Sequence record: PQ850618.1
Length of the DNA stretch: 64,000 nucleotides
Direction: 5' to 3' (one strand)
Source of the DNA: Escherichia phage ManiWeber_Bas99
The position numbers and the translations under genes are program-made. The stretch's first letter is position 1; the number at the start of each line of letters is the position of its first letter. A model generated the notes under the pieces. The model worked only from the letters and a program-made list of their open reading frames with translations, was not told the origin of the DNA and searched no databases. Below are positions 42,075-59,166 of the stretch, in pieces.

Positions 42075-42521
42075 TTAACGGTAATTTACTAGTTGCTGAT
42101 CACCAGAGAAGGTGCAATGATAAACGAATTGTGCGTTATAAAGCAACTGAAAACTTTTCTTTGGTTCATTATTAGAACTCATTGATGTAAAGATTTCTGC
42201 ACCAGAACGATTTTCACCAATCAGGTTGATAAAGCCGCCAGTTGAACGAGGCTGAACGAAAGTGAAACGTTGCATCCACGGAGTGCGGTTGGCACCTTTC
42301 CCTGTGAATCCTTGAATCTGAATATTCAGGCCTTCTTGCTCGTTCACACCGATGTAAGTGGTAATTGTTGCGCCAGTCGTTGCTGCGGTCTTGCCGTCCA
42401 TCGCTTCGCAATCGTAAACAGCGATTGAATCTGAAGTACGGACAGCGGCTTCAGTCGCTTCCATATACATGGTTCCGAGAATAGCAGTTGCGGCAAGCGC
42501 GATTCCAGTGATTCGTTTCAT
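42075..42521 (-). CDS. secreted protein of unknown function
   Basis: 148 aa with N-terminal signal peptide MKRITGIALAATAILGTMYMEA. Confidence 0.5.
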   Translation of the reverse strand: MKRITGIALAATAILGTMYMEATEAAVRTSDSIAVYDCEAMDGKTAATTGATITTYIGVNEQEGLNIQIQGFTGKGANRTPWMQRFTFVQPRSTGGFINLIGENRSGAEIFTSMSSNNEPKKSFQLLYNAQFVYHCTFSGDQQLVNYR

Positions 42522-42586
42522 TTTCGTTTCCTCTATGAGTTCTGCTTCAATGATTAAAGTATACGCCCATTGAAGCAGAAAGCAAA

Positions 42587-43582
42587 TTATTTATTAGCAA
42601 TATAAGCAAATTTTTGATAGTTATTTGCTTTGATGAGTTTTTCAACTTCAACAAGGTCATGAGCAACGTCATCAAGCAAAATGTTTCGCCAAGTAGCGAA
42701 TCGACCGACACTAAATACGTTCAAATCCATGGTCAGCTGTAGGAGTAGAGCGTGTCGCAAGTCTTTCGGAATGTCGACAATCTTGCCATACTTCTGGTCG
42801 ACCTTTTCAACTTCTTCGAGAGCGATGTCACTCCATGAGAGGCCAAAGGCCGTCAACACTTCGTCGACTTCTGCGCGCAGCTTGATGTCACGGTAACGAG
42901 TAATGCCGCCAGCGGCTTCAACTGCGGCTTCACTTACGCTAACCAAAGGAATTGTTTCAATGATCAGCGTGTCACCAGTGATTGATGCGCGGTAAGTTCT
43001 GACGGAGTAGTCAGGAAAGTAAATGGTTTGATACAGTTCACACTTGCGTTTAATCTTAAAGCGGTAAACACGAATGTTTGCCTTGTCGAATGAGAAATCA
43101 ATCTTTTGATCAATCCCAGCAAGCTTCATTATGACTGGCAGCGGCGATGTGTTGATGATTGGCGTCTCGCTATAGCCGCAAAGAGTATCAACAGGAGTAT
43201 TAAAGAATATGCGGTCACCCAGTTTGTCGACAAGCTGATCATAAAAGTCATCAGGCGCAATATAACGCGTTGCAGTTTTAAGCTTCATGATTGAACGGCT
43301 GCCAAACTGATTGGTGACCTTCATGGAATACATATTGGCAAGGTTGATTGGGCAATGGTCGTGGTAGTAGTTGCCGCGAAAATACACAGCCTTGTCAACT
43401 GTCACGGCTTTAAAAGGGATTCCGGTAATACGGCTTACTTCTTCGCTGCGAAAGCGTAGCAATGCCTTGTGCTGTGGCGCTCGCTCCCCTGCTTCGTACA
43501 CAATAGAGTTCGGGAAGTGACACGCGGTAATAAGTCCTGCCAAACCGCCGCCGATAATCATTACAGGTTGTTTCATGTTCAT
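42587..43582 (-). CDS. Rossmann-fold FAD/NAD(P)-binding protein
   Basis: 331 aa; N-terminal VMIIGGGLAGL dinucleotide-binding motif; substrate unknown. Confidence 0.5.
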   Translation of the reverse strand: MNMKQPVMIIGGGLAGLITACHFPNSIVYEAGERAPQHKALLRFRSEEVSRITGIPFKAVTVDKAVYFRGNYYHDHCPINLANMYSMKVTNQFGSRSIMKLKTATRYIAPDDFYDQLVDKLGDRIFFNTPVDTLCGYSETPIINTSPLPVIMKLAGIDQKIDFSFDKANIRVYRFKIKRKCELYQTIYFPDYSVRTYRASITGDTLIIETIPLVSVSEAAVEAAGGITRYRDIKLRAEVDEVLTAFGLSWSDIALEEVEKVDQKYGKIVDIPKDLRHALLLQLTMDLNVFSVGRFATWRNILLDDVAHDLVEVEKLIKANNYQKFAYIANK

Positions 43583-46330: not shown

Positions 46331-46358
46331 TTGACTTTGTATCACTCAATATTATACT
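46331..46358 (+). promoter_or_regulatory. rightward sigma70-like promoter (TTGACT-16-TATACT)
   Basis: TTGACT at 46331-46336 and TATACT at 46353-46358, about 30 nt upstream of the primase start. Confidence 0.45.
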
Positions 46359-46387: not shown

Positions 46388-47470
46388 ATGGCTAGTTTAA
46401 GAGAAGAAGCAAAAATAATCGAAGAGTTTTTAACAGAACTCCAAAGAGGCATTCCAGAAGATGAGCGCGTCATGACGGTGTTTGCGCCTGAAGCAACGGT
46501 GCAGACTGACGAGCGCGGCAAGAAGATTAACAGCAGCTTCTGGCCTAAGCCTTGGAAGTTGGGCAAGCCGCTCATGCAGCACCAAAACGGCTATGCCTGC
46601 ATCAGTTCAATGCGTAAGTCTCCCAACCCGAAGACGGGTGAGATGCGATACTGGCGTACAGAGTCAGCCTTTGGTCACGGTATGGCGATGATGGTCGACG
46701 ACATCGGTCACGGTAAAGGGTCCAAAGGCGATTTAGATTTGGAATTCTTTTTCGAGCGACTGAAGCCGACTGTCATTGTCGAGACGTCACCGAACAACCA
46801 CCAGCTGTGGTACTTCTTTAAAGAACCAATTGACCATCTTATTCAGTTCAAAGCATTCCTTGGGTCTTTCGTAAACATGGTACTCAAGAAGGGCGGCGAC
46901 AACACGATTAAAGACGTAACGCGCGTGGGCCGTGTTCCTGGGTGCATCAACAACAAGCGCGTGACTCACGACGGCCCCTATAAATATGTCGATGAGAACG
47001 GCGACCCGTTCCGCTGCCGACTTGTCCATGCAGATTACTCCTTGCGCTACACCATCGAAGACATTTGTCAGGCATTCGGCTTTCACGTTGTAATGCCGCA
47101 AAAGCGTGAGATTCAAATTGACGTCGATGAATACAAATACGATGCTGTTTGGTATAAGATAGCCCAGCAGATTCTAGCGCGCAACAAGATGGGTGAAGGG
47201 TCTGATGGCGACGTTATCGAGAATATGTCAGGTAAGTGTCGCATAATCTGTCCTTGGGGTGAAGAGCACACCAACGGCGACCCGTATGGCGCTTACTTTC
47301 GCGGCCCTATCCCTGGTGCAGAACATGAATTTGTGTTCGGTTGCGCCCACGACTGTCACCGGAAAGGGGAAGGCAAGAAAGGTTGGACCGCTTTTGTTGA
47401 AGCAATCGTCATGCCTTATATTGAGAATCAACTTGACATGATAAATCGTCGTGCAGGTGGCATAAAATAG
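46388..47470 (+). CDS. DNA primase, archaeo-eukaryotic (prim-pol) type
   Basis: 360 aa; MVDDIG (acidic DxD-like) and SPNNHQLWYFF resemble AEP catalytic motifs; C-terminal Cys/His cluster. Confidence 0.5.
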   Translation: MASLREEAKIIEEFLTELQRGIPEDERVMTVFAPEATVQTDERGKKINSSFWPKPWKLGKPLMQHQNGYACISSMRKSPNPKTGEMRYWRTESAFGHGMAMMVDDIGHGKGSKGDLDLEFFFERLKPTVIVETSPNNHQLWYFFKEPIDHLIQFKAFLGSFVNMVLKKGGDNTIKDVTRVGRVPGCINNKRVTHDGPYKYVDENGDPFRCRLVHADYSLRYTIEDICQAFGFHVVMPQKREIQIDVDEYKYDAVWYKIAQQILARNKMGEGSDGDVIENMSGKCRIICPWGEEHTNGDPYGAYFRGPIPGAEHEFVFGCAHDCHRKGEGKKGWTAFVEAIVMPYIENQLDMINRRAGGIK

Positions 47471-47528
47471 TTTGCTTTTATTTTTATAGCAACTATAATC
47501 ATTTTATGAACTGAAGCAGAGGTGGTTT

Positions 47529-47675
47529 ATGCAAAGCGAAGAATTGAACATCGAGGTTGAAGGTCTGTTAAAGGCGTTAGAACCTAAACCAGTAGAGCTT
47601 CCGACCCTTCAAGGCGTCATGGCTCACCATCAAGCGGCTGCGGCCCAATACTACTCTGAATTTGTTAAGGAATAA
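47529..47675 (+). CDS. small hypothetical protein (48 aa)
   Basis: Strong SD AGAGGTGG; tightly packed with the next gene; not in the ORF track. Confidence 0.4.
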   Translation: MQSEELNIEVEGLLKALEPKPVELPTLQGVMAHHQAAAAQYYSEFVKE

Positions 47676-47678
47676 AAG

Positions 47679-47969
47679 ATGAACGAACCAAAAATGATGA
47701 CTGTTGAAGAAGCGCAAAAGCTTCGTGTTGAAAACGAGCTTAAGCTTGTCAACCAGATTCTTCCCTTGTTTGCAGGCTACGCAGTGGAAGAAGTTGTTGG
47801 TGCAATCCTTAACGTATCCACGCATGTAGCTATGAATCTCCAGGCCGAACGATTCAACACGCTGCTGACTATTAAAAACCTTACGGTCAGTGCAACATTC
47901 ACCGTTGAGCCAGTCAATTTTGACGAAGCTTCAGCCGCGATTCAACAGCAAAGAGATCAAGAGGTGTAG
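47679..47969 (+). CDS. hypothetical protein
   Basis: 96 aa ORF. Confidence 0.45.
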   Translation: MNEPKMMTVEEAQKLRVENELKLVNQILPLFAGYAVEEVVGAILNVSTHVAMNLQAERFNTLLTIKNLTVSATFTVEPVNFDEASAAIQQQRDQEV

Positions 47970-47970
47970 C

Positions 47971-48234
47971 ATGGGCGCTTTCCGTAACGAGTTCATCTGG
48001 AACGTTACCAGCAATCTCTCGACTTGTCCTAACTGTGCGAGCGATGTTATCAAGGTGCGGCAGCATCGCAACGCGGAGGAAGGTGCCTGGGAAGATGGCG
48101 ACCTTGTAGAGTGCCAGTGCTGCTCTCATGAAGGTGTTGTTGAGCTTCAAGCTGGTGAAGGTTGCCCACCAGCAGAACGCACGGCACGCGTTGAATGGGA
48201 TGCGACAGACTCCATTGGTGATCCTCAACAGTAA
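47971..48234 (+). CDS. Cys-rich zinc-ribbon-like protein
   Basis: ATG at 47971; CPNC...CQCCSH...C cysteine pattern. Confidence 0.45.
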   Translation: MGAFRNEFIWNVTSNLSTCPNCASDVIKVRQHRNAEEGAWEDGDLVECQCCSHEGVVELQAGEGCPPAERTARVEWDATDSIGDPQQ

Positions 48235-48252
48235 ATTTAGGTATAGATACTT

Positions 48253-48357
48253 ATGAAAGCCGTAAAGAAATACACATTAATCATTTCCCTTGTCATCATC
48301 CTGGGGCTATTATATGTATTGGATATGGCATATTATTTGGCAGGGGTGAGTGGATGA
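48253..48357 (+). CDS. small single-pass membrane peptide (34 aa)
   Basis: MKAVKKYTLIISLVIILGLLYVLDMAYYLAGVSG; stop overlaps the next start; not in the ORF track. Confidence 0.3.
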   Translation: MKAVKKYTLIISLVIILGLLYVLDMAYYLAGVSG

Positions 48358-48644
48358 ATATTGTAATTCTTTATGGTGAAAATATCAGCGATGACGACAT
48401 CGAAGTTGCCGTTGATGTTTACGGTATCGATGAGGTGAAACGTGTTGAAGAAATTAGTGGCGCAAATCTCAATGAGATTGTCAAAGAAACTGGCTGCCCT
48501 TCGGAAGAGATTCTGGTGGTTACTAACGATGACCTGTCTTCTATGGATCATTTGCGCCGCATCTTCACCGATTGCCAATACCTTCATGCTGTTCAATCAG
48601 TAAACAAATTGAGAAAGGCATACGCCAACCAATTTCCTTGCTGA
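48354..48644 (+). CDS. hypothetical protein
   Basis: 96 aa ORF followed by a terminator. Confidence 0.45.
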   Translation: MNIVILYGENISDDDIEVAVDVYGIDEVKRVEEISGANLNEIVKETGCPSEEILVVTNDDLSSMDHLRRIFTDCQYLHAVQSVNKLRKAYANQFPC

Positions 48645-48696
48645 TAGTTCACCAGTTATATTGCTTTAAATTGAGTTTTACTATATTAATATACAA

Positions 48697-48719
48697 CGCC
48701 AGATTTCTGGCGTTTATTT
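48697..48719 (+). terminator. rho-independent terminator
   Basis: CGCCAGA-TT-TCTGGCG hairpin followed by TTTATTT. Confidence 0.5.
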
Positions 48720-48780
48720 ACCGCACCCTGAAAGGATATATCCATGCAACAATATAACAAAGCCGTATCAGGAGGATTAA

Positions 48781-50451
48781 ATGTCAATTAATAATGACAA
48801 TCTTCCAGAGGATACAGGTGATGAATTTGGTGCAATCTTTGACGAAATTCAAGATGCAGGCGTTTCGGAAGAAATGCAGGCAGCAGAGCAGCAAGGCACC
48901 AGAGCTAAAATCAGCCTTCAACATAAAGCCGTTGAAAAAGATTCAGAGCGCATGGAATGCTACGGTGAAGAAGACTTGGTTGAAAGAGCACGCTTGCTCG
49001 CCTCACTTCAGGTAATCAAGTTCCCTCACTACAAGCCTACCAAAGATGACTTCGTTCTACAGGCAGACCGGACGAGTGACATGAACCGTTATGCGGTTTT
49101 CGACGCGTTGTTTGATAAGGGAAGTGGCATTGTTCCATTCCCTCACAAAGATACTTTTCGTGGGCGCTTAGTCGACCATCGCGGCGAAACATTCACTGAC
49201 CGTACCTTGGAAGTCACAGAGATAGTTGCCGCTGTCGACGCAGCAGGGCTGTCCAACCCAAACTCACGTCAGGTCGCTCAATCCTATAAGGAATGGGCCA
49301 TGCGTTATCAGCGCGACGACCTGATGGACTTCTTCTACAAGAAGCTGCCTGAATGGGACGGTACTGCGCGCATCGAGAAATACCTTATCGAGCTATTCCG
49401 ACCGTTCGATACAGAGTTAAACCGACGAATCGGTGTGTATTTTTGGCTATCGCTCTATAACCGCCTGACCAACCCTGGCTGTCAAGCGCCAATCTCCATC
49501 GCGCTCATCGGCGGCCAGAACGCAGGGAAGAGTTATTTTAGCAAGCTGCTTTGCGAAGCTATTATGAACGACCGCCACGCAACACCGATTCCGTTGAACT
49601 TAGCCGCGCAAAACTTCAACCCGTTCTTGCGCGCCATCACGGGTCGCTCCATTATCGCGAACGTTGGCGAGATGACAGGCTTTAAAAAGGCTGACATCGA
49701 AAACATGAAAGCATTCCTGACTAAGACGGAAGACGACCTGGACTTCAAATTTGAAGATACACAGGTTAAACCACGCCAGTGGATTGCTATTATGGACGGC
49801 AACGAATACGCAGGCATGCAGCGTGATGACACGGGCAACCGTCGTGTGTATCCTATCTTTGTTGGCCAACTTGCCGACAAGGACGGGCAGCCGAACTGGT
49901 CGAAAGACTTCCAAGCTGACCTTTCCACTTTGAAAGAAGACGTTTGGCAGTTGATGGCTGAGTGCGCTGCGTGGATGGAGAAGCACGGCGAAGCAGGCTA
50001 TAACGCGTTTGTTGGTGAAACATCTCGCATGCTTACTGAGTTCAGTAAAAACGAAATGGAACGCGCTCGCGGCGTTATCCGTGATGAGATGGTTGACAAC
50101 GACCTTGTTGAAGTCGTCATCACCGCGCCTTATGACCGACATCACAGCGGACGCTGGCACATCACCAGTGGTGCTATTGCTATGGGATTCAGAGCGAAGT
50201 GTGGCAAGTCGCCTTTCTCTCGTACCCTTGCGCCACACATGTCGAAGCTTGGTTTTGAGCCTGCAACCTATCGCAACCAGCGCGGTTACTTTACGCCGCT
50301 GATTAAGAATGAAGCAGGAGAATACATTTCTGATTTGATGACCATCTTAGCGTATCTTATTCGCGATGAGTCTGACCCTGAAGATATTGAATTCTTGAAG
50401 AAGGTTATCGAGCGTAAACGTTCTTTGGGAAGAGATAAGGATGAATTCTGA
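48781..50451 (+). CDS. P-loop NTPase, primase-associated helicase candidate
   Basis: 556 aa; Walker A GGQNAGKS; resembles P4-alpha/VirE-type helicase regions (from memory); same operon as the primase. Confidence 0.55.
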   Translation: MSINNDNLPEDTGDEFGAIFDEIQDAGVSEEMQAAEQQGTRAKISLQHKAVEKDSERMECYGEEDLVERARLLASLQVIKFPHYKPTKDDFVLQADRTSDMNRYAVFDALFDKGSGIVPFPHKDTFRGRLVDHRGETFTDRTLEVTEIVAAVDAAGLSNPNSRQVAQSYKEWAMRYQRDDLMDFFYKKLPEWDGTARIEKYLIELFRPFDTELNRRIGVYFWLSLYNRLTNPGCQAPISIALIGGQNAGKSYFSKLLCEAIMNDRHATPIPLNLAAQNFNPFLRAITGRSIIANVGEMTGFKKADIENMKAFLTKTEDDLDFKFEDTQVKPRQWIAIMDGNEYAGMQRDDTGNRRVYPIFVGQLADKDGQPNWSKDFQADLSTLKEDVWQLMAECAAWMEKHGEAGYNAFVGETSRMLTEFSKNEMERARGVIRDEMVDNDLVEVVITAPYDRHHSGRWHITSGAIAMGFRAKCGKSPFSRTLAPHMSKLGFEPATYRNQRGYFTPLIKNEAGEYISDLMTILAYLIRDESDPEDIEFLKKVIERKRSLGRDKDEF

Positions 50452-51098
50452 TGAATAAAGCAATCAACATCGCTAAATTCTTTCAACATCTTGGTGAACT
50501 GAACAAAGAAAGTGATGTTCATGGCGAAGAAATGAACCGGATGATTTCAACCGTGTTGCGTGGCTTTGGTTATGATAAGGACTCAATCACTTGCAAGCGC
50601 ACAAAGCTTGTCGATGAGTCTTATCTTTACTACGTAGAGTTGCGCATCGGGAAAGATGTGATGATCATTGACCCTAAACTGGAAGGGGCGCACTGTTTTG
50701 GCGCTCACCCTCGTGCGAGTGAATTCAAGGGTCGCGGTCGCAACCGAATCCAAAAGCTTGATGATGCAGGCGACTTGAACATTGCTATGTTCCTTAAAGA
50801 GTTCCTTGCGCTACCGAAGGTTGCATCATCCACTGGTCGTGATGACCCTTGCAAGATTGGATTCCGAACTAAAGATTTGCGCAATGCGCTACGCAAGAAG
50901 GGATTTGTGCCTTCTTATGACAATGTCGCCGCGCTGATGGCTTCAATGGAGGAAGCTGAAGCGATGGACAAGGTGCGCGGCTATTTCCTGAATACAGGCT
51001 TCACCATGTATGAATGGCACACGAAGGGATTGACTGTCGCCGACTTCATCTATTCATTAGAGCAGAAGTATGTACGCAATATGCAGGCCACAGGATAA
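50451..51098 (+). CDS. hypothetical protein
   Basis: 215 aa ORF with overlapping start/stop. Confidence 0.45.
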   Translation: MNKAINIAKFFQHLGELNKESDVHGEEMNRMISTVLRGFGYDKDSITCKRTKLVDESYLYYVELRIGKDVMIIDPKLEGAHCFGAHPRASEFKGRGRNRIQKLDDAGDLNIAMFLKEFLALPKVASSTGRDDPCKIGFRTKDLRNALRKKGFVPSYDNVAALMASMEEAEAMDKVRGYFLNTGFTMYEWHTKGLTVADFIYSLEQKYVRNMQATG

Positions 51099-51137
51099 TT
51101 ATCATCAAAATATTTGCTTTTCTGACGAGGTGATATT

Positions 51138-51362
51138 ATGATTAATTTAGACAGGATTGAGTTAGCACTTAGTACCTTAATCAAATATTACCAGTTTGCT
51201 TTTAAGGCTAGTTTGTTTGGCTTGTTCAATCCTCATCAAGCAGCAAAGGCGCGAAGCAATGCCAACCGCCTGCGCTGCACTGGTATAGTCATCCATGACC
51301 GGATATTGACAGAGGGTAGATTCAGCCATGAATACACAGGGGAGAATAACAAATCAACGTAG
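51138..51362 (+). CDS. hypothetical protein
   Basis: ATG preceded by GAGGTGA; 74 aa. Confidence 0.4.
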   Translation: MINLDRIELALSTLIKYYQFAFKASLFGLFNPHQAAKARSNANRLRCTGIVIHDRILTEGRFSHEYTGENNKST

Positions 51363-51537
51363 GGCTTTACAAGTCCTCATCCACTACCTGTCACGCCTTT
51401 ATCCAACGGCGCACGAGCAGAATCCAGAAACTGGTCATCTGTTTAAGCGCCGTAACCTTTCGCTAAAAACATTCGCTTTAATCCAATATGACCGCTACCT
51501 GGACGGGCGCTACTGCGGCCCGAAGGATTCTCTATGA
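51328..51537 (+). CDS. hypothetical protein
   Basis: 69 aa ORF overlapping the previous ORF; start uncertain. Confidence 0.3.
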   Translation: MNTQGRITNQRRALQVLIHYLSRLYPTAHEQNPETGHLFKRRNLSLKTFALIQYDRYLDGRYCGPKDSL

Positions 51538-51812
51538 TTACTACATACAAAGTATTCTTTGTCAAGTGCACATCATCTATTGATGACCAATTTACTGCTG
51601 GCAAGAATTATCCCGTGATTTCTGAGTCAAAGCTAGATATAATCTTGAACGATCATGAAATCTATGAGCCGATGCCAGCGACTGCGTTTGATGTTATCGG
51701 TCACGTTCGGATTAAGACTAATGTTGATACGATGCATGATCCGTTGTTCAAGAAGCAAATCAAGAATGCCATGCAAGACTTTTGCGCGGCCATGTTTAAA
51801 TATTATAAGTGA
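51534..51812 (+). CDS. hypothetical protein
   Basis: 92 aa ORF. Confidence 0.45.
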   Translation: MITTYKVFFVKCTSSIDDQFTAGKNYPVISESKLDIILNDHEIYEPMPATAFDVIGHVRIKTNVDTMHDPLFKKQIKNAMQDFCAAMFKYYK

Positions 51813-51819
51813 GTTGAAG

Positions 51820-52041
51820 ATGAGCAAGAAAACCCTTAAGGCTGGCGACCGTATCCGTTGGGTGTCAGGACAGCACATGCGTGCCGGCACCATCCTTGAG
51901 CTGGATGAATACCTTACCGATTCTCGCGGTCGCAATCATTACCGTGTAAGAATCGATACAGTAAAAGAAGATGACAAATCAATGGTTGGTGAAGTGGTCA
52001 TCGTTACTCCACGTCAAATTAAGGCGGCTTGTGAAGCATGA
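51820..52041 (+). CDS. hypothetical protein
   Basis: ATG at 51820; 73 aa. Confidence 0.45.
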   Translation: MSKKTLKAGDRIRWVSGQHMRAGTILELDEYLTDSRGRNHYRVRIDTVKEDDKSMVGEVVIVTPRQIKAACEA

Positions 52042-52193
52042 ATAAATATCAATTTAGCGATAATAAAATCAGTAAGGCAGATGCAATCAAGCAGCTTCGC
52101 CGCGTACTTGAAGCCAGCGGACATACGAAAGAGCGTGCACGCGTCCTGGCCAAAGAGCATTATAAACGTTTTGTGTCACAAATCAGAGGTTAA
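52038..52193 (+). CDS. small hypothetical protein (51 aa)
   Basis: ATGA overlap with the upstream gene; not in the ORF track. Confidence 0.35.
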   Translation: MNKYQFSDNKISKADAIKQLRRVLEASGHTKERARVLAKEHYKRFVSQIRG

Positions 52194-52195
52194 TT

Positions 52196-52687
52196 ATGAT
52201 CATTCATCGCCCTTTAATGTTAAACAAAGAAGAGTGTGAAGAAATTTTACACGCATTGAGACGTGCAGAGGCAGATGTCAACATTCGTGTAAAGGTAAGA
52301 AACTTTATCATGAATGAGTTTAAAAGTTTTGATGTTGACTATGCCATCGATGAATTACTGAAGCGAAACGTCAAGGGTGCAACAAGACCTATTCACCATC
52401 AATCACGTTGCGTAAGAGTTCCTATTAAAACTTATGTTGATAAAAAGCCGCGCCTTAAGCCAATTGACATATTTGACATAAAGAACGGCGACTCAATCAT
52501 AAGCAAGGACGCGGAAGAGGGTGCAATTCCTGTCAATGGCCGAGTGATTCACGTGTCGCACGATGCTGATCAGACTTTAATTCAATGGGTAAGGTTTGAT
52601 AACACTGGCGGCGGCAAATATCGCTACTATGGCGACGAGCGATTCACCACTAAATTCTATAAGGTACTCGACCATGGCTCATGTTAA
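52196..52687 (+). CDS. hypothetical protein
   Basis: 163 aa ORF. Confidence 0.45.
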   Translation: MIIHRPLMLNKEECEEILHALRRAEADVNIRVKVRNFIMNEFKSFDVDYAIDELLKRNVKGATRPIHHQSRCVRVPIKTYVDKKPRLKPIDIFDIKNGDSIISKDAEEGAIPVNGRVIHVSHDADQTLIQWVRFDNTGGGKYRYYGDERFTTKFYKVLDHGSC

Positions 52688-53021
52688 AGACGAAGTGTTG
52701 TTTGGCGCAGAGATTAAGAAACGTGTCAGAGAAATGGCAGGAGAAGAAAGAATGAAGTTGCTGCGAAAAGGTTTTGATCACATCAATGGCGTATCCGGCA
52801 CGAAGGAGATGGGCGTGTTGGTAAAAGACATTCGCATTGGCGATGTCATGGTCATCGACCGACAAGCGCGCGTCGTTATCCAGGTACAGCCGAACGATGA
52901 TGAAGGTTGTGTCCTATTGAAGTTGAAGAAGCTTTCATCAAGCCCAGCGAAGGCCGTCATCAAGAAGGTATGGCCCGAAGGATTGCGCAAACTCATTCGT
53001 CGACCAGTGGAGAATGTATAA
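52674..53021 (+). CDS. hypothetical protein
   Basis: ATG at 52674; 115 aa. Confidence 0.45.
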   Translation: MAHVKDEVLFGAEIKKRVREMAGEERMKLLRKGFDHINGVSGTKEMGVLVKDIRIGDVMVIDRQARVVIQVQPNDDEGCVLLKLKKLSSSPAKAVIKKVWPEGLRKLIRRPVENV

Positions 53022-53257
53022 TGGAAGATTATATCAACGCTATGTATATGGCATTCTATGTCGTGCAACTTCCGAATGGCGCGGTATTCTATGGCGAGTA
53101 TACCTTTGACGTTCAATATGACGTTTCAGAGCGTACAGTGTTAACAAGGGAGTTGATTGCGGACCTTAAGGACGACATCAAACGCGTCGCGCGGCAGCAG
53201 TTCAATTTGGATGACACGGTCATCGTTCGAATTACCGGAATAACAGAGGTGCAGTGA
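53021..53257 (+). CDS. hypothetical protein
   Basis: ATG overlapping the upstream stop (TAATG); 78 aa. Confidence 0.45.
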   Translation: MEDYINAMYMAFYVVQLPNGAVFYGEYTFDVQYDVSERTVLTRELIADLKDDIKRVARQQFNLDDTVIVRITGITEVQ

Positions 53258-53586
53258 TGACCCGTGATCAGATACTCGCCGCGCATGAGCGTGAAAAGGT
53301 GAAAGAAATCTGGAAAAGACACAACGCCTTTGCCGAGTCCTATTACTTCTTAAAGAGGTGCATAAAAGAGAATGTGAGGATGGGCGATACCGTTTTGACA
53401 TTTAACATTTTGTCTTATGGTAATAAGCTTAATGCAATATATGCTTGTCGACTAGCCAACATGAAGTTCGATAGAGGAGGTGACGGAGAGTTGACCATCT
53501 ATCGATTCTCTCACCGGACGGGTGATACAAAGATAACAAGGACACGTGACCAGATAGAGATTGACCTACTCCACTATGTAAAATGA
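53254..53586 (+). CDS. hypothetical protein
   Basis: 110 aa ORF followed by a terminator. Confidence 0.45.
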   Translation: MMTRDQILAAHEREKVKEIWKRHNAFAESYYFLKRCIKENVRMGDTVLTFNILSYGNKLNAIYACRLANMKFDRGGDGELTIYRFSHRTGDTKITRTRDQIEIDLLHYVK

Positions 53587-53594
53587 ATATCAAA

Positions 53595-53625
53595 AAAGGT
53601 GAGCTAAATGCTTGCCTTTTCTTTT
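53595..53625 (+). terminator. rho-independent terminator (copy 1 of a duplicated cassette)
   Basis: AAAGGUGAGC-UAAAU-GCUUGCCUUU (two G-U pairs) followed by UCUUUU. Confidence 0.5.
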
Positions 53626-53640
53626 ATCAATACTTATACT
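53612..53640 (+). promoter_or_regulatory. sigma70-like promoter (TTGCCT-17-TATACT) overlapping the terminator
   Basis: The -35 lies inside the terminator 3' arm; -10 TATACT at 53635-53640. Confidence 0.4.
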
Positions 53641-53671
53641 CTTTTCATCAAGATGAAAAGCGAGGTGAATT

Positions 53672-53989
53672 ATGATTTACTTAGGAATGGACGAAGATGC
53701 GCACAAAGACCTTTCAAGGGTGCCAAACGTTAAGTTAGACACAGCTGTACACATCAAGCCTTGGCCAATCGCCCACCCTGACGTAGTTGTACCAGTCGCG
53801 CCTGGCACGCGTTACGTGGCCATTGATGACGACGGAGTGATTCACTGTTATTCGGAAAAACCAAAGTATATAAAGCAATATCACGGTTGGTTTTTGGACG
53901 AGCGTGCAATGGCGCGTTACTGCGGCGAAGTCGGACTGGAAGGCTGGAGCTTCGAGGCTAGTGAATCGTGTGTCGAGGTGCAATTATGA
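53672..53989 (+). CDS. hypothetical protein
   Basis: 105 aa ORF. Confidence 0.45.
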   Translation: MIYLGMDEDAHKDLSRVPNVKLDTAVHIKPWPIAHPDVVVPVAPGTRYVAIDDDGVIHCYSEKPKYIKQYHGWFLDERAMARYCGEVGLEGWSFEASESCVEVQL

Positions 53990-54204
53990 ATGCCGCGCTG
54001 GGTAAGTTGTCTTTCAATAAACGCAACGAGTTGCGCATGGTGTCGGCTTTTCAGCGCACCCTTAATGCCATGTCAAGCGTTGCCATCACGATGCTTCGCG
54101 CTGATTGCCCTGCTGAAAAGCGTGAGACTTTATTCGAACGTCACCAACAATTACAAAAGGCGGCATTTAAGCTGCAGCAATATGCCATGGAGTATGCAAA
54201 ATGA
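53986..54204 (+). CDS. hypothetical protein
   Basis: ATG at 53986; 72 aa. Confidence 0.4.
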   Translation: MNAALGKLSFNKRNELRMVSAFQRTLNAMSSVAITMLRADCPAEKRETLFERHQQLQKAAFKLQQYAMEYAK

Positions 54205-54584
54205 GAATGAAGCGTTGCCCTTACTGCCACGATGTAATGCACCTTCCACACGAAGAGTTTGTGCAGCACATGACTAACTGTGATAAGAATCCTAATAGCG
54301 AAAGCCAACTTGAAGAAAGAATGTTCTTGGTGTCATTCAAAGCTTCTGCTTATGAAGTGCAACGTTCTTACGGCGCACCAAGTACGATTTACTGTCCAAC
54401 AACATTGAGAAGCGACATCGACTCAATTCAGCTTGCGGCCTGGATTAACGTTAAGGAAGGAATCACGCCGCACTTTATTGCGCGCATCCAATCTCAGATT
54501 CTACAAATCAAGCGCGAATACAACCGTGACATCACTGAAGTGAAGGTGTTGTCTATCACGCCTATGAATAAGGAGTTGCCGTGA
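54201..54584 (+). CDS. zinc-finger-like protein
   Basis: N-terminal CPYCH...H...C motif; 127 aa. Confidence 0.45.
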   Translation: MRMKRCPYCHDVMHLPHEEFVQHMTNCDKNPNSESQLEERMFLVSFKASAYEVQRSYGAPSTIYCPTTLRSDIDSIQLAAWINVKEGITPHFIARIQSQILQIKREYNRDITEVKVLSITPMNKELP

Positions 54585-54841
54585 ACAAGGGTCCGATGAC
54601 TAAGTTAGCCGTTGCCGCGCGGAAGCTTCGACAAGCCGTTAATGGGTCACGGCCCGTGGTGTTAACACTCGACGACGCAAAGGAACTGGTAGAGCTACTC
54701 GACGAGCACAACCGACGCAAGAATAGAGAGCGCACATTAAAGTACCGCGTCACGCCAGCCGGACGCGAGTGTGAAAAGAAAGCTTACTTGCGGCGGAAGT
54801 TAAGGTCGGTCGGTCTACACGAAGAAGCCGATCAGATTTAA
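54581..54841 (+). CDS. hypothetical basic protein
   Basis: 86 aa ORF followed by a terminator. Confidence 0.45.
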   Translation: MNKGPMTKLAVAARKLRQAVNGSRPVVLTLDDAKELVELLDEHNRRKNRERTLKYRVTPAGRECEKKAYLRRKLRSVGLHEEADQI

Positions 54842-54846
54842 TTCAA

Positions 54847-54877
54847 AAAGGTGAGCTAAGTGCTTGCCTTTTTATTT
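54847..54877 (+). terminator. rho-independent terminator (copy 2 of the duplicated cassette)
   Basis: Near-identical to the 53595 hairpin, followed by TTATTT. Confidence 0.5.
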
Positions 54878-54891
54878 GTCTGTATTATACT
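54864..54891 (+). promoter_or_regulatory. sigma70-like promoter (TTGCCT-16-TATACT) overlapping the terminator
   Basis: Same architecture as the 53612 promoter. Confidence 0.4.
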
Positions 54892-54919
54892 TAATTCATC
54901 AAGCAAAGGAGAGGTTATT

Positions 54920-55225
54920 ATGAGTACCGAAGCGATGAAGAGCAAGTTGTTGAAGGTTATGCAAGCCGCTGTCGAGTGCGGTGCTATTCAGGAGTTCAAA
55001 GAGACGCAAGAAGGCGGTGAGCCAGTATTCTTCTTTAAGAACAAGAAAGGTGCGGCAGCTGCTGTTATGCTCTTGAAGAACAGCGACATGACCTTTATTC
55101 TTTGCGCAGGCGGTTATGACCTTGTTGCCGATGACGCTTACATCACCTGCGCGACGGGCCTTAATCCTATGTTAACGTTTGAGCGTCGCGGTATTCGTGT
55201 TGCGACATTTGGAGGCGTTTTATGA
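54920..55225 (+). CDS. hypothetical protein
   Basis: ATG at 54920 preceded by AGGAGAGG; 101 aa. Confidence 0.5.
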   Translation: MSTEAMKSKLLKVMQAAVECGAIQEFKETQEGGEPVFFFKNKKGAAAAVMLLKNSDMTFILCAGGYDLVADDAYITCATGLNPMLTFERRGIRVATFGGVL

Positions 55226-55407
55226 GTACCGAAGTCCACAACGCATCAGCACTGGTAAGCTTTTACCGCAACAAAGGCGTGTCTCTCGTTAAAACGTCGC
55301 AAGGCATGCTGTTCTTTGGCACGCGATTCCTTAAAGCTTCGGAGCGTGAAACGCTGTCCAAGTTTGATCAGAAAACATTACAAGCAGTTTGGAGACGACA
55401 ACAATGA
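55222..55407 (+). CDS. hypothetical protein
   Basis: 61 aa ORF. Confidence 0.4.
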   Translation: MSTEVHNASALVSFYRNKGVSLVKTSQGMLFFGTRFLKASERETLSKFDQKTLQAVWRRQQ

Positions 55408-55700
55408 AACTAAGTTTAGCACAAGTCCAAACATTATACCGTATGGAAGACGGGACGCGATATATGTTGCGTGGCGATTGCAAGAAGGCTCATGAGAAGC
55501 GCCCATCGCTGTTTCATGACGTCAATGCACCATCAATCCCTGTTTTGTTTCGCCTTGGGCTTGTTGATTGGGCGGTTCAAGGAGAAAAAGACCCAAGGCT
55601 ATATTCATTTGTGGTGATGACAAAGAAGGGTCGCGAGGCATTACAAGGAATTAAAGAGAATATGAGAGGAGGAAAATACTATTATGACATCCAATCTTAA
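55404..55700 (+). CDS. hypothetical protein
   Basis: ATG at 55404; 98 aa. Confidence 0.45.
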   Translation: MKLSLAQVQTLYRMEDGTRYMLRGDCKKAHEKRPSLFHDVNAPSIPVLFRLGLVDWAVQGEKDPRLYSFVVMTKKGREALQGIKENMRGGKYYYDIQS

Positions 55701-55920
55701 AGCCCGTTTATTATTCATCAAGCCGCATGTGCCGTATAAGATTAGTAAGCGCACCTGGCTTAACATTTACAACCGCAGCGGCGACCGTTGTTTGTACAAG
55801 GCAAAGCGGCGCAAGAAGGTATATTTAAAGGCGGTGATGTCCCAGCCCGTCGATGCATTCAACATCGGCGAAAATGAATTGTCAATCGGCTATCAAATTG
55901 AACTAGGAGCAAAGAAATGA
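55684..55920 (+). CDS. hypothetical basic protein
   Basis: 78 aa ORF. Confidence 0.4.
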   Translation: MTSNLKARLLFIKPHVPYKISKRTWLNIYNRSGDRCLYKAKRRKKVYLKAVMSQPVDAFNIGENELSIGYQIELGAKK

Positions 55921-56417
55921 AAATCGAACAACTCGAAGCAGTATTGGAAATGGCTGTAAAGGCAGGCGCAATCAGAAGCTATAGCCGCGAGAAGTCGGAT
56001 GATGCTGCGCACTTTTGTCGCAACTTCTATATTGTCGGCAACCTTAACGACCACTACACCATCGAGTGGTATACTAATATGATGACGCTTAAGTCGCGCA
56101 CCATGGAGCTTTGGTGCAATGACATTTGCTTATCCAACACTCATCCATCCTACGACGTGGCATTGGCATTCTATTACGGAAGTCATCAACCAGTAGCCCA
56201 CATTGGTGAGAAGCATGAGCACTTGAAGAAGCCAGAAGAATCTCATGAAGGTTGGATTGAATGGTCTGGCGGCAAGAATCCGGTGCCTGGTAAAAAGGTC
56301 ATGTTGATGTGGAGGAATGAAGAGAAGTCTTCTTATTCATCCAATTCAGAAGGATGGCTATGGCAGCACAACGGAAGCATTTATGACATTATCGCTTATC
56401 GCGTCGTGGAGGAATAA
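55917..56417 (+). CDS. hypothetical protein with GG-NPVPGK / AYRVV C-terminal domain
   Basis: 166 aa; C-terminal WIEWSGGKNPVPGKKV...IIAYRVVEE shared with the 57299 gene. Confidence 0.45.
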   Translation: MKIEQLEAVLEMAVKAGAIRSYSREKSDDAAHFCRNFYIVGNLNDHYTIEWYTNMMTLKSRTMELWCNDICLSNTHPSYDVALAFYYGSHQPVAHIGEKHEHLKKPEESHEGWIEWSGGKNPVPGKKVMLMWRNEEKSSYSSNSEGWLWQHNGSIYDIIAYRVVEE

Positions 56418-56758
56418 TGGAAGAGCAAGAAGGCCGTGAGCTAACGTTCGACGAGCAAATGCAAGAGCTTCAGCGCACATCGCCGCTGCGCGGTAAGGTT
56501 GTTGACATCGAGGCGAGCGAATCCAATCTCACCCAGTGGCGGCTTAAGTGCACCAGCACAAGCAAGGATATGTTAAGCTTCAAGGTCGGTCAGACCTATT
56601 TGCTTTATGAGGCAAAAGGACTTATTATTGATGGAAGGCAAATTGTCTTCACGGTAGTCAGCGGAATGCGTTGGTTTGTGAAGCGTGATGTCGAGGGCCG
56701 TGACATGTTTGTCGCAGGCTTTCCAGAAACAAGATTCCAATTGGAGAAGGTTAAATGA
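56417..56758 (+). CDS. hypothetical protein
   Basis: 113 aa ORF. Confidence 0.45.
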   Translation: MEEQEGRELTFDEQMQELQRTSPLRGKVVDIEASESNLTQWRLKCTSTSKDMLSFKVGQTYLLYEAKGLIIDGRQIVFTVVSGMRWFVKRDVEGRDMFVAGFPETRFQLEKVK

Positions 56759-57087
56759 AATTGAAATGGTATGTGGACCCTGAGCCGACAGGCTCATACA
56801 GGTCATTCCAACGTCGCGGCTGGCCGATTTGTTACAGCGGCAATCCCGATAAAGAAGACTGCGAGGTGCTTGCCGCGATAGTAAGTCTTAATCATGACGG
56901 CTATGAAGGCCACTACGCGAGAGCAACCAACCTTCGTCTCAAGGTGCGCATCCATTTCAAGGTCGCAGGCGAGGACCGCACCGGACTCTCCAAGGAAGAG
57001 TTCAGCAGCATTGCCGAAGCAAAGGCATGGCTCAAGGCGTTCTACAAGAACAATCCTAAATTTTATCCAACTAAGGGTGCATTATGA
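56755..57087 (+). CDS. hypothetical protein
   Basis: 110 aa ORF. Confidence 0.45.
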   Translation: MKLKWYVDPEPTGSYRSFQRRGWPICYSGNPDKEDCEVLAAIVSLNHDGYEGHYARATNLRLKVRIHFKVAGEDRTGLSKEEFSSIAEAKAWLKAFYKNNPKFYPTKGAL

Positions 57088-57302
57088 CCGATAATCAATA
57101 CGCAGTCGGGCAACGTGACATCGAGCAACTCGACGAGGGCGGCTATTATACGCGCCACATCTATGCCATGACTCATGAAGGACTTTACAGCAAGTCGGAC
57201 ATCGCCGCTGAACTGGCCCATCGTGACTTGCAAATTGACCTTCTCAAGATAGAAATTCAAAACTTACGCAACACCCTGTTAAACACCTGGAGCTTAAAAT
57301 GA
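57084..57302 (+). CDS. hypothetical protein
   Basis: 72 aa ORF. Confidence 0.4.
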   Translation: MTDNQYAVGQRDIEQLDEGGYYTRHIYAMTHEGLYSKSDIAAELAHRDLQIDLLKIEIQNLRNTLLNTWSLK

Positions 57303-57724
57303 TACAGCGTTACGACCTGACATATGACGTGGCATCAGACGATTTCGCCGTCACTCCCGTTCCAGAAAGTCATGAAGGACGTTTTGTTGCATATGAGGAC
57401 TATGAATCACTACTCAAGCTTAATGAGTCGCTAACAAAAGAGATTGAGCAATACCGCGAGCGCATCAAAGCCGCTGAAGATGTTATCAAGCTTTTTAGCG
57501 AGGCTGTTGAGAAATACAAGGAGCGAAACGTACCGATTAAGGAGGAAGCGTGGACCGTGTGGTTTGGTGGCGTGAATCCGGTGCCTGGGAAGATGGTTGA
57601 GTTTGAATTACTCAACGGTTATAAGTCAAAAGGTGCTGTTCCTTCGGATAGTTTGACATGGGATAAAGTCACAAGCCCGACTGGTGCAAAGATTGTTGCT
57701 TATCGGGTCGTTAAGGAGGGGTGA
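57299..57724 (+). CDS. hypothetical protein with GG-NPVPGK / AYRVV C-terminal domain
   Basis: 141 aa; C-terminal WTVWFGGVNPVPGKMV...IVAYRVVKEG paralogous to the 55917 gene. Confidence 0.45.
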   Translation: MIQRYDLTYDVASDDFAVTPVPESHEGRFVAYEDYESLLKLNESLTKEIEQYRERIKAAEDVIKLFSEAVEKYKERNVPIKEEAWTVWFGGVNPVPGKMVEFELLNGYKSKGAVPSDSLTWDKVTSPTGAKIVAYRVVKEG

Positions 57725-58173
57725 TGGGTAACAAGCTTATCGCCGCTGGTTGGGCCATACCGAAGTGGGCTCATCGTGCGCACTACTTTGATGAAGGAGA
57801 AGTGCAAAGCCTTTGCGGTCGCGCAACGTATTTCGGTGATGAGCGCGTCAGCGGCGATTACATTGACTCGCTTTTAGGTAAAGGTGATTGCAAGAAATGT
57901 CAGGATATATTAAGAGATATTCTGACGCAAAAAGGATTGCTTGAGCTTGATGAGTCGGAGGAAGTAATAGAGCTTAAGCTTGAAGCCAATCACCTTATTA
58001 ATATGTTCAAGAATTATTACTTAACGAATATGCGCTCAAAGATGCGTGAGGAAGTAATAAAAGAGGTGCTCACTTACAATCCGTTAAGGATGAATAAAAC
58101 TAAACTGAAGAAGTTTAATGCAATGGTAAGAAAGGAATTTAGACGGCTTGGAGTGAAGAATTTTATATTTTAA
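57721..58173 (+). CDS. hypothetical protein
   Basis: 150 aa; last gene of the rightward early operon, followed by a terminator. Confidence 0.45.
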   Translation: MMGNKLIAAGWAIPKWAHRAHYFDEGEVQSLCGRATYFGDERVSGDYIDSLLGKGDCKKCQDILRDILTQKGLLELDESEEVIELKLEANHLINMFKNYYLTNMRSKMREEVIKEVLTYNPLRMNKTKLKKFNAMVRKEFRRLGVKNFIF

Positions 58174-58190
58174 TTATGATTAATGTTAAG

Positions 58191-58214
58191 AGGGCCAATC
58201 GGCCCTTTTTATTT
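58191..58214 (+). terminator. rho-independent terminator
   Basis: AGGGCC-AATC-GGCCCT hairpin followed by TTTTATTT. Confidence 0.6.
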
Positions 58215-58710
58215 GCCTGTGTAATGGGAGGCTTTTGTGGTTATTTACGATTCAAGGCTGTAATTTAAGAGAGCGAAAATATTATAATAATTTATCAAGA
58301 TTATTGCATATTGTGGCAATCAACGTTTATACGTATTTATGACAGTTTAATCCACTAAATAATACGGATAGAACAGTGAGGAAAATACAGCGGTGTATTT
58401 TAGTGTAAATATTGAATCAAAAATAAATAATTATGGTGCTATTATATACGCAGATTGTTTGTAATTTATAGGATATTTTATCGTGGAGTATTGGCTAACG
58501 GTGCGTTAGCCGTGGGTCTTGGTGCTTGTGGTGTTGATGCTCAGAATTTTAATAATGTTTTTAGTTTTAGTAATCGTAGTCAATGATGATACGTATAAGA
58601 AAATGAGAGTCACCCCTTCACAGGATATTGTACCGTGGCCCTGTGGCGCGCCGCGCCTGGGATTGCTGGTATACACTGGTGCTATTTTGCCGCGAAGGCA
58701 GTCATTCATA

Positions 58711-58952
58711 CGTATCATGACGTATCATTGGGCTATTGATTTATAAGGAAAAATACGCTGATACGGATGATACGGATGCAAACATAATATATATAGAATT
58801 CCAGAAAATTAATTAACTCCATTTTGAATTAATTTAAATTAATTTTTTTCTACATCCTCATACTTATACTAAACTTATATTTATACGTATTATCCGTAAG
58901 ATATAAGTAAAAACAAAGACTTGCGGCAATACGGATGATACGTCATGATACG
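58711..58952. repeat. iteron-like repeat element B
   Basis: CGTATCATGACGTATCA (58711-58727), GATACGGATGATACGGATG (58759-58778), AT-rich core with GAATTC, TTATCCGTAAG (58889-58899), ATACGGATGATACGTCATGATACG (58929-58952); same units and core as the element at 6.6 kb. Confidence 0.6.
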
Positions 58953-59166
58953 CTTCAACCAGCCAGCAGCGGCTAAGTCATTGATTTGCATAGCAAGCGG
59001 CGAAAGGGATGGATTTCTTTTATACGTATCAAACAGTACACCACGCACCACGGTCCGTTATCCATTCAGCAATATGATTTGTGTACGTTTATAGCCATAA
59101 TGAACATCAATCTGCACTTGAATATAATGTTCATCCATTGTATAATTCACACTATTAATTTGCACT

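Follow-up and report, generated by a model that had tools for sequence, protein, structure and literature searches.

Two copies of a conserved, predicted terminator-promoter cassette in a gene cluster of the Wifcevirus phage ManiWeber_Bas99

The stretch of DNA analysed here (the window; 64,000 nucleotides of record PQ850618.1) comes from Escherichia phage ManiWeber_Bas99, a Wifcevirus (an E. coli myophage of ~68 kb); the record of one relative, kaset, places Wifcevirus in the Lindbergviridae. A co-directional cluster of plus-strand genes spans 46388-58173, and two similar intergenic units, referred to as cassettes 1 and 2, lie inside it. Between the promoter predicted in cassette 1 and the terminator predicted in cassette 2 stands a block of four genes, kept in all relatives, although one extra gene is inserted in some of them and one relative is without a gene. 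Pfam and PHROGs searches with the ten proteins flanking the cassettes gave no function, recognisable domain or candidate regulator. The features of the cluster, with promoters and terminators as predicted, are as follows.

46294-46266, minus strand: divergent partner promoter, TTGCTT (46294-46289), 17-nt spacer, TATACT (46271-46266)
46331-46358, plus strand: upstream promoter of the cluster, TTGACT-16-TATACT, in the divergent gap
47472-47499, plus strand: promoter within the cluster, TTGCTT-16-TATAAT, with no hairpin attached
53587-53671, plus strand: cassette 1, the whole intergenic unit from the TGA of a 110-aa gene (53584-53586) to the ATG of a 105-aa gene (53672)
53594-53620, plus strand: terminator hairpin T1, GGTGAGC (53598-53604), loop TAAAT (53605-53609), GCTTGCC (53610-53616), extended by A:U pairs
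53617-53627, plus strand: U-tract of T1, TTTTCTTTTAT
53612-53640, plus strand: promoter P1, -35 TTGCCT (53612-53617, inside the 3' arm of T1), 17-nt spacer, -10 TATACT (53635-53640)
53644-53652, plus strand: TTCATCAAG box at the probable start site of cassette 1, common to both cassettes
53672-54841, plus strand: block of four genes, function unassigned
54842-54919, plus strand: cassette 2, the intergenic unit from the TAA of an 86-aa gene (54839-54841) to an ATG (54920)
54845-54873, plus strand: terminator hairpin T2, GGTGAGC (54850-54856), loop TAAGT (54857-54861), GCTTGCC (54862-54868)
54869-54877, plus strand: U-tract of T2, TTTTTATTT
54864-54891, plus strand: promoter P2, -35 TTGCCT (54864-54869), 16-nt spacer, -10 TATACT (54886-54891)
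54895-54903 and 54905-54914, plus strand: TTCATCAAG box and ribosome-binding site AAAGGAGAGG downstream of P2
58188-58220, plus strand: terminator T3 closing the cluster, stem GGGCC-AATC-GGCCC, tail TTTTTATTTGCCTGT; an annotated terminator in the WFH record

The original prediction had described nearly identical units of ~45 bp at the two sites. A repeat search bore out their position, pairing 53593-53628 with 54845-54880 (89% over 36 nt) and 53634-53652 with 54885-54903 (84% over 19 nt). The near identity applied to the hairpin and U-tract (29 of 30 positions) and not to the spacer between the -35 and -10 hexamers, so that 39 of 46 positions agreed over the units as first delimited; the length was underestimated as well, because the homology spans the entire gap (84-91 nt) between the stop codon and the ATG. 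The 25-nt pattern of the hairpin matched the window exactly twice, compared with 0.00 matches expected from shuffled sequences, and the repeat is therefore not a product of chance. Hairpin, U-tract, -10 hexamer and start-site box are common to both cassettes, and spacer and discriminator differ; the TTCATCAAG box is the same in both even though the discriminator bases preceding it are not. Cassette 2 has a mosaic-like make-up, combining the hairpin of T1, the tail of T3 and the -10 and start box of P1. In most relatives, cassette 2 and T3 have the tail TTTTTATTTGCCTGT in common.

The seven core pairs of the stem (GGUGAGC/GCUUGCC) are G-C, G-C, U-G, G-U, A-U, G-C and C-G. Folding of the extended stems gave -13.7 and -14.7 kcal/mol on the plus strand (z -4.75 and -4.12) and -10.5 and -9.7 kcal/mol on the minus strand; for the core by itself the values were -8.7 on plus versus -3.2 kcal/mol on minus. 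The proposal that the hairpin folds only in the plus transcript is borne out as to its two G-U pairs and the asymmetry between the strands, but "only" was slightly too strong a word. The stems begin 8-11 nt past the stop codons, and in each case a G+C stem-loop is followed by a U-tract, as in intrinsic terminators (TTTTCTTTT behind T1 and TTTTTATTT behind T2). The homologous hairpins of both cassettes carry the annotation "putative transcriptional terminator" in the record of phage WFC (given with -10.10), and the WFH record also annotates both as terminators, a prediction made independently by others. T1 and T2 are thus most likely plus-strand intrinsic terminators according to the modelled folds. 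The core is modest (7 bp, two of them wobbles), so termination there may be weak.

As the original prediction had it, a TTGCCT -35 overlaps the hairpin and a TATACT -10 follows downstream at both cassettes. The spacing and hexamers are of the sigma-70 type, and the ATG lies 31 nt (P1) or 28 nt (P2) downstream; the start sites would fall near A53647 and A54898, respectively. The hexamers of P1 and P2 each score 9/12 against the sigma-70 consensus. Single 9/12 matches numbered 30 in the window, compared with 30.4 expected in shuffled sequence, so that the promoter call depends on the statistics of a motif family and on conservation. The motif TTGCYT-N15-18-TATAMT occurred 10 times in the window versus 0.16 times expected, an over-representation of ~60-fold. 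With a relaxed form of the motif, 9 of 12 matches were fully intergenic, although intergenic sequence makes up 8.6% (binomial p = 4e-8), and these nine point at the next gene, 20-45 nt upstream of its ribosome-binding site and ATG. In the part of Bas101 that was examined, every family match falling there (10/10) was conserved. The promoter motif is accordingly recurrent, enriched and non-randomly placed. The same hexamers had been reported at 2180, 6915, 46266 and 46331; all four sites proved to be members of this one family, yet none carries both TTGCCT and TATACT. The site at 2180 is TTGCTT-17-TATAAT and that at 6915 is TTGCCT-17-TATAAT, and the site at 46266 is on the minus strand. A motif search for further copies added members at 21277, 42558 (minus strand), 47472 and 17213. 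Those at 21277 and 42558 are likewise embedded in strong hairpins. What the other promoters of the family have in common with the cassette unit is the hexamers alone. Head and baseplate genes, too, are preceded by predicted promoters of the TTGCYT/TATAMT family. An early timing of the region and differing expression of its blocks, as in the original prediction, gained no support.

These data bear on the view that the cassettes are terminators only, in which the hairpins end transcripts or stabilise 3' ends and TTGCCT and TATACT are inert. The hairpins alone sufficed for the annotators of WFC and WFH, the single hexamer matches stand at background, and within each site the whole gap, including the spacer, is without variation. 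The hexamers would then have been conserved only as parts of a duplicated gap in which the leader and ribosome-binding site of the following gene are located too. This view does not account for a motif family that is over-represented, intergenic and directed at genes. It is also at odds with the comparison of the two copies, in which the -10 and start box were kept while the spacer diverged, the pattern expected of a promoter. Furthermore, efficient termination at T1 and T2 would require separate promoters for the genes that follow. We therefore regard the terminator-only view as unlikely, and P1 and P2 are, judging from their sequences, most likely sigma-70-type promoters whose -35 doubles as the 3' arm of the hairpin.

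Both cassettes were present in 28 of 28 GenBank relatives, with exactly two copies per genome, and in all 18 relatives compared in detail. In cassette 1, 78 of 92 alignment columns were invariant and diversity was 0.022 (19 genomes), compared with 0.17-0.27 in the flanking genes; the corresponding values for cassette 2 were 0.039 versus 0.13-0.37. The cassettes form an island of conservation even where the downstream protein is 64-70% identical. This invariance extends over the whole gap, and conservation alone consequently cannot single out the promoter elements. Hairpin variation among the relatives fell almost entirely in the loop (TAAAT, TAAGT and TATAT at site 2). The sole stem change, GGTGATC at site 2 of SP13, is uncompensated and lowers the core to -2.0 kcal/mol. 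No compensatory stem changes were seen in ~30 genomes, which leaves the RNA structure without support from covariation.

Searches of GenBank, IMG/VR and metagenome contigs found no cassette outside the genus. Scans of IMG/VR with TATACTNNNNTTCATCAAG and GGTGAGCNNNNNGCTTGCC gave chance single matches, none with the full hairpin; a scan with the 23-nt hairpin recovered only further Wifcevirus genomes with an identical hairpin, and the same was true of metagenome contigs scanned with the 5' arm left free. Rfam gave no match for the cassette. Distant BLAST matches of cassette 1 to Asteriusvirus and Salmonella jumbo phages (E ~1e-3) were rejected as evidence of cassette spread, since they proved to be bidirectional terminators of an ordinary kind (AAAAAGGAGAGC..GCTCTCCTTTTCTTTT), situated between convergent genes; their resemblance to the cassette is one of convergence and low complexity. 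In the literature searched, promoters, terminators and transcriptomes of Wifcevirus appeared only as software predictions in methods sections.

The constancy of the stem could also reflect a sequence-specific recognition site, at which a factor of phage or host origin (for example an antiterminator, a nuclease or a repressor acting on P1 and P2) binds the hairpin, either in the RNA or in the DNA, where it is an imperfect palindrome, and switches both boundaries together during infection. The stem sequence itself, beyond its pairing, is invariant at both sites in ~30 genomes, and other terminators of the phage have unrelated stems; as the -35 lies partly in the hairpin, binding there would affect termination and initiation alike. 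However, the genus is young, and the identity may simply be due to purifying selection on a stem that loses a pair with every single change. Read as DNA, the palindrome has two mismatches, each of the G-T type on the plus strand, a sign of pairing in RNA rather than of a symmetric DNA site, and the neighbouring genes, with no recognisable domains, yielded no candidate regulator. A dedicated recognition site seems to us quite improbable on balance.

A further view concerns translation. The 5' arm contains AAGGTGA, which resembles a ribosome-binding site, and an ATG or GTG follows in the loop 5 nt later, so the cassette could begin a leader peptide at site 1 or an N-terminal extension at site 2. 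Open reading frames do start in the loops (53608-53733, 41 codons, out of frame; 54860-55225, in frame), gene callers took the loop ATG as a start in Bas101, kaset and AV128, and in WFC the first AAGGTGA copy is the ribosome-binding site of an inserted gene. Against this, the frames at the two sites are unrelated, a much better ribosome-binding site and ATG stand 60 nt downstream at both, and the start codon would be buried in a stable hairpin. The hydrophobic "extension", moreover, is a translated T-rich tract that precedes four unrelated genes. A coding or translational role thus has very little to recommend it. A lipoprotein or signal-peptide reading of the extension at site 2 was also considered and rejected, given a cysteine at residue 8, a valine before it in the window and four unrelated genes downstream.

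Taken together, each cassette probably is a composite of an intrinsic terminator and a sigma-70 promoter that divides the co-directional cluster into transcription units. The core of the original prediction, a plus-strand terminator whose 3' arm serves as a -35, was supported by every computational test available, namely the strand-specific hairpin and U-tract, the annotation in WFC and WFH, the motif family, and the conserved -10 and start box. We infer termination, initiation and their start sites at the cassettes from the sequence, and the proposed course of events is as follows. Polymerase coming from 46331 and 47472 (and, for cassette 2, from P1) would transcribe the hairpin and the U-rich tract, and part of the population would stop there, as at a factor-independent terminator. 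The DNA of the 3' arm would at the same time present the -35 TTGCCT of a host sigma-70-type promoter, with the -10 16-17 bp further on, and E. coli RNA polymerase would start anew at the A of TTCATCAAG, ~7 nt downstream of the -10. The new mRNA would lack the hairpin and would have a short leader and a strong ribosome-binding site. With the cassettes as transcription boundaries, the cluster at 46388-58173 would be split into at least three units, running from 46331 to T1, from P1 to T2 (four genes) and from P2 to T3 (~ten genes). As regulatory signals of a phage, the cassettes are of an ordinary kind, though their conservation is strong.

Gene content next to the cassettes varies, and a reading that is compatible with the terminator-promoter explanation sees the cassette chiefly as a patch of homology for insertion, deletion or swapping of genes that bring their own start and stop signals. 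A 195-nt gene lies directly 5' of cassette 1 in WFC, SP13 and Bas100 and has on either side a copy of the 21-nt direct repeat AAATGAATATCAAAAAGGTGA, which takes in the 5' arm of the hairpin. RCIP0319 carries an insertion of three genes immediately 5' of cassette 2. In the slot immediately 3' of that cassette the genes belong to eight families, which are combined in many ways, and four different genes are found in first position. The mosaic make-up of cassette 2 and the precedent of the PeSL cassettes in T4-like phages (PMC2839356, PMC4122927) fit as well. On the other hand, the region has at least five further variable slots where a cassette is absent and the breakpoints are plain gene junctions, and a swap 3' of cassette 2 is explained equally by a 15-nt repeat at the gene starts, TTATGAGTACCGAAG. 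The block between the two direct repeats was never deleted in ~30 genomes, and there are only two cassette copies per genome and none outside the genus. Three of four cassette-adjacent junctions were variable versus roughly 5-6 of 18, a comparison with too few events for significance. We therefore hold a chief role in gene exchange to be doubtful. Only tentatively, and against the balance of the evidence, could the cassette be called a mobile regulatory module of the PeSL type outside T4-like phages that serves as a patch for gene gain, loss and exchange in Wifcevirus; such exchange would have left as its footprints the 21-nt repeat around the gene inserted at cassette 1 and the T1/T3 mosaic of cassette 2. 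Equally tentative is a further idea: the termination point closely overlaps the spacer between -35 and -10, and a terminated polymerase might restart at once from the overlapping promoter.

Should these predictions be confirmed, the cassettes would mark out the transcription units of a genus that has been little studied, for which very fast replication has been reported and biocontrol use proposed, and they would provide a compact terminator-plus-promoter part readable by E. coli polymerase. The TTGCYT-N16-17-TATAMT family is a ready promoter map for the annotation of Wifcevirus genomes, and it suggests that promoters in front of structural genes, too, may be read by the sigma-70 polymerase of the host. 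A PeSL-like role, if true, would mean a second, independent lineage with such composite signals and would bear on how small accessory genes are shuffled without disturbing the expression of their neighbours. None of these outcomes would change current concepts.

TTGCTT is the -35 of strong promoters of coliphage T5, such as PN25. These T5 promoters have been characterised by experiment, E. coli RNA polymerase reads them in its unmodified form, and they are not known to be fused to a terminator hairpin. The predicted Wifcevirus sites resemble them in the TTGCYT-type -35, the 16-17-bp spacer and the TATAAT-like -10. On a genome-wide scale, a parallel is offered by the distantly related Pbunavirus 14-1, for which Putzeys et al. 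(2024, PMC10914365) give dependence on host RNA polymerase, 26 mapped sigma-70-like promoters, a second, phage-specific promoter motif and 14 terminators. Many sigma-70-like promoters and fewer terminators, distributed over the genome, and overlapping transcription units are features that 14-1 has in common with the picture proposed here; it differs in its host, and it has no sequence homology with the Wifcevirus cassettes.

Within the genus, the records of WFC and WFH (MK373777, MK373776; Korf et al. 2019, PMC6563267) place putative terminators on the same two hairpins at homologous positions, and the methods of that paper include the terminator predictor ARNold. These records annotate the hairpin only, with no overlapping promoter, copy relationship or promoter family.

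The closest known kind is the PeSL (promoter-early stem-loop) cassette of T4-like phages (Arbiol et al. 2010, PMC2839356; Comeau et al. 2014, PMC4122927). The Wifcevirus cassettes differ from it in that they belong to a phage that is not a T4-like myovirus, occur as two near-identical copies rather than as dozens of dispersed copies with ~100 bp conserved, and have a stem that is not of the GGGG/CCCC type; recombination at them is no more than a suggestion. Both are small composite intergenic motifs that join a sigma-70-type promoter to a stem-loop acting as terminator or attenuator, as predicted here. One PeSL subclass has a stem that overlaps the -35, and G-T pairs have been noted in PeSL stems. 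Early expression, crossover points within the cassettes and mini-circles that arise by recombination between cassettes are further traits of PeSLs. As in the hyperplastic regions in which PeSLs occur, the ten proteins flanking the Wifcevirus cassettes are without known function and gene content varies (18 genomes), and both kinds of cassette are repeated within the genome, in a variable region of unknown-function genes, adjoining insertions and replacements that distinguish close relatives.

The two-unit repeat was present as originally described, with 39 of 46 positions identical at the coordinates first proposed. A repeat search paired 53593-53628 with 54845-54880 (89%) and 53634-53652 with 54885-54903 (84%), and the similarity spanned the entire gap from stop codon to ATG in both units (cassette 1, gap 53587-53671; cassette 2, gap 54842-54919; both + strand). 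The 25-nt hairpin pattern had 2 matches in 64 kb, against 0.00 expected. E. coli and Shigella Wifcevirus phages (WFC, WFH, ECML-117, FEC19, Bas98-101 and others) matched the window at 85-92% nucleotide identity, and the gene map was taken from the annotation of one close relative, Bas101.

Gene map after the Bas101 annotation, with the terminator T3
1 to ~28.5 kb, + strand, terminase, head, tail and lysis genes
28.8-46.2 kb, - strand, replication and nucleotide-metabolism genes
46388-58173, + strand, gene cluster with primase and ATPase genes first, then ~25 small genes
58188-58220, + strand, T3, the terminator closing the + strand cluster, tail TTTTTATTTGCCTGT

Both cassettes fell within the small-gene portion of the + strand cluster, and the ten proteins around them matched no known-function family in Pfam or PHROGs. 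In most relatives, the T3 tail was identical to that of cassette 2. Past T3 lay about 1 kb of non-coding DNA (58216-59166), in which short repeats occur (ATACGGATGATACGGATG and ATACGTATCA-like). Judged against WFC, the 3784-bp direct terminal repeat begins near 58.8 kb, which would also be the physical genome end, and the small-gene cluster therefore extends to where the unique sequence stops on the right.

The core stem of the predicted terminators (T1 and T2 in cassettes 1 and 2), GGUGAGC/GCUUGCC, contains two G-U pairs and folded at -8.7 kcal/mol on the + strand versus -3.2 on the - strand. With flanking A:U pairs, the stems reached -13.7 and -14.7 kcal/mol (z -4.75 and -4.12) on the + strand and -10.5 and -9.7 on the - strand, so that both hairpins were strand-asymmetric. 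The hairpins lie 8-11 nt from the stop codon, with G-C pairs at the stem base beside U-rich tracts directly 3' of both. Because the WFC and WFH records carry homologous hairpins independently labelled as putative terminators by their authors, the terminator half is already part of the public annotation; the terminator predictor ARNold is among the listed methods of the WFC/WFH genome paper (PMC6563267).

Both cassettes were found in 18 of 18 fetched relatives, and exactly two copies occurred in all 28 matching GenBank records and in two metagenome contigs. Among 19 genomes, nucleotide diversity was 0.022 and 0.039 in the two gaps, compared with 0.13-0.37 in the adjoining coding sequence, and the protein just 3' of cassette 1 shared only 64-70% identity in many of these phages. 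The site 2 loop had three variants (TAAAT, TAAGT and TATAT). The single stem change, in SP13, was uncompensated and would reduce core stability to -2.0 kcal/mol; the stem was otherwise invariant, and covariation thus gives no evidence for or against pairing.

In the promoter half, TTGCCT lies within the 3' arm of the hairpin, with TATACT 17 bp (cassette 1) or 16 bp (cassette 2) further downstream. A generic promoter scan at 9-of-12 gave 30 sites versus 30.4 in shuffles, and an isolated match of this kind means little. The motif TTGCYT-N15-18-TATAMT, however, had 10 matches in the window versus 0.16 expected. A relaxed pattern that also admits TTGAYT and TAYAMT had 12, of which nine were wholly intergenic (intergenic share of the window, 8.6%; p = 4e-8).

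Intergenic sites of the promoter family (relaxed pattern)
2180, + strand
6915, + strand
21277, + strand
42558, - strand
46266, - strand
46331, + strand
47472, + strand
53612, + strand, P1, predicted promoter of cassette 1
54864, + strand, P2, predicted promoter of cassette 2

All nine face the next gene, 20-45 nt upstream of its ribosome-binding site and ATG, and the family sites within the Bas101 stretch compared (1-50000) were conserved in 10 of 10 cases. Head, protease and baseplate genes are also preceded by family promoters, indicating that the family is not specific to early genes. A literature search for expression data on the genus found none, and 'early operon' is at most a tentative label. 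Common to the two cassettes are the hairpin, the U-tract, the -10 and, where transcription would be expected to start, a TTCATCAAG box; spacer and discriminator differ, which is what a promoter under selection would look like. Strong phage T5 promoters use TTGCTT as -35. A distant relative, Pbunavirus 14-1, depends on the host polymerase and has 26 mapped sigma-70-like promoters (PMC10914365).

Two exact family matches, at 8853-8882 (+; coding sequence near the end of the gene preceding the major head protein gene) and 12896-12869 (-; antisense inside the tail-sheath gene), were nearly conserved in Bas101; they may represent internal or antisense promoters, or may have arisen by chance. At 21277-21340 (+), identical in Bas101, the family promoter ahead of the baseplate-spike gene is embedded in a strong hairpin (-26.7 kcal/mol, z -5.3). 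The hairpin's 5' arm falls within the promoter spacer, and its 3' arm takes in the AUG and the ribosome-binding site AAGGAG; this site would hence be masked in readthrough RNA but not in RNA begun at that promoter. Phage T4 gene e (lysozyme) follows the same logic. A second promoter within a hairpin was seen at 42515-42600 (-), where the -10 of TTGCTT-16-TATACT (42585-42558) sits between the two arms of a perfect 14-bp inverted repeat, UCUGCUUCAAUGG/UCAUUGAAGCAGA (-19.3 kcal/mol, z -3.5). At 29346-29420 (-), terminator and promoter adjoin without overlap: TTTACT-16-TATACT begins 24 nt past hairpin AAAGCCGGAaatcTCCGGCTTT and its tail TTTTCTTTTAT, which equals the cassette 1 tail. The gap 5' of the 556-aa primase/ATPase gene (48644-48781, +) holds a promoter-like TTGCTT..TATATT, then hairpin GCCAGAtttcTGGCG and TTTATTT, and could encode a small RNA or leader attenuator.

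From these sequence features, each cassette is probably a conserved composite terminator-promoter boundary, and the original prediction of attenuated readthrough with re-initiation appears largely right. T1 and T2 would lower readthrough arriving from upstream, and host polymerase would re-initiate at P1 (53612-53640) and P2 (54864-54891), yielding hairpin-free mRNAs with short leaders and units running from 46331 to T1, from P1 to T2 (four genes) and from P2 to T3. The termination point would fall within the spacer of the cassette's own promoter, and we infer that the terminator may shield this promoter from overrun by incoming polymerase.

The public records of Bas101 (L002 4361), kaset (L009 4200) and AV128 (L260 4361) begin the gene that follows cassette 2 at the loop ATG of the hairpin, which takes its coding sequence across terminator and promoter. 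These starts are probably mis-called, since a more plausible one lies 60 nt further on, behind AAAGGAGA.

The cassette adds one more example to a kind of element already described, and its terminator half had been annotated before in relatives. Promoter-early stem-loops (PeSLs) of T4-like phages, the closest such kind, are composite motifs that join a promoter to a stem-loop and occur in hyperplastic regions rich in unknown-function genes; in some subclasses the stem overlaps the -35. A role in guiding modular shuffling has been proposed for them, and mini-circle formation has been demonstrated (PMC2839356, PMC4122927). The cassettes resemble them in composite architecture, in location within a variable region of unknown-function genes and in the varying gene content beside them. 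Directly 5' of cassette 1, three phages carry a 195-nt gene bracketed by a 21-nt direct repeat containing the hairpin's 5' arm; RCIP0319 has three genes inserted 5' of cassette 2, and the stretch immediately 3' of that cassette draws on eight gene families in many different combinations. There, two consecutive genes open with the same 15 nt, TTATGAGTACCGAAG (54918-54932 and 55220-55234), and ECO71P1 and RCIP0363 lack the first, a pattern consistent with its loss or gain through recombination at TTATGAGTACCGAAG rather than at the cassette. Unlike PeSLs, the cassettes exist in just two copies, the phage is not T4-like, and they are absent outside their own genus, with no copies beyond it found in GenBank, IMG/VR or metagenome contigs. 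At least five other variable slots carry no cassette, and the block between the two repeats was never lost. Given both shared and unshared traits, the cassettes are predicted to work like a PeSL and are likened to that family rather than classed within it.
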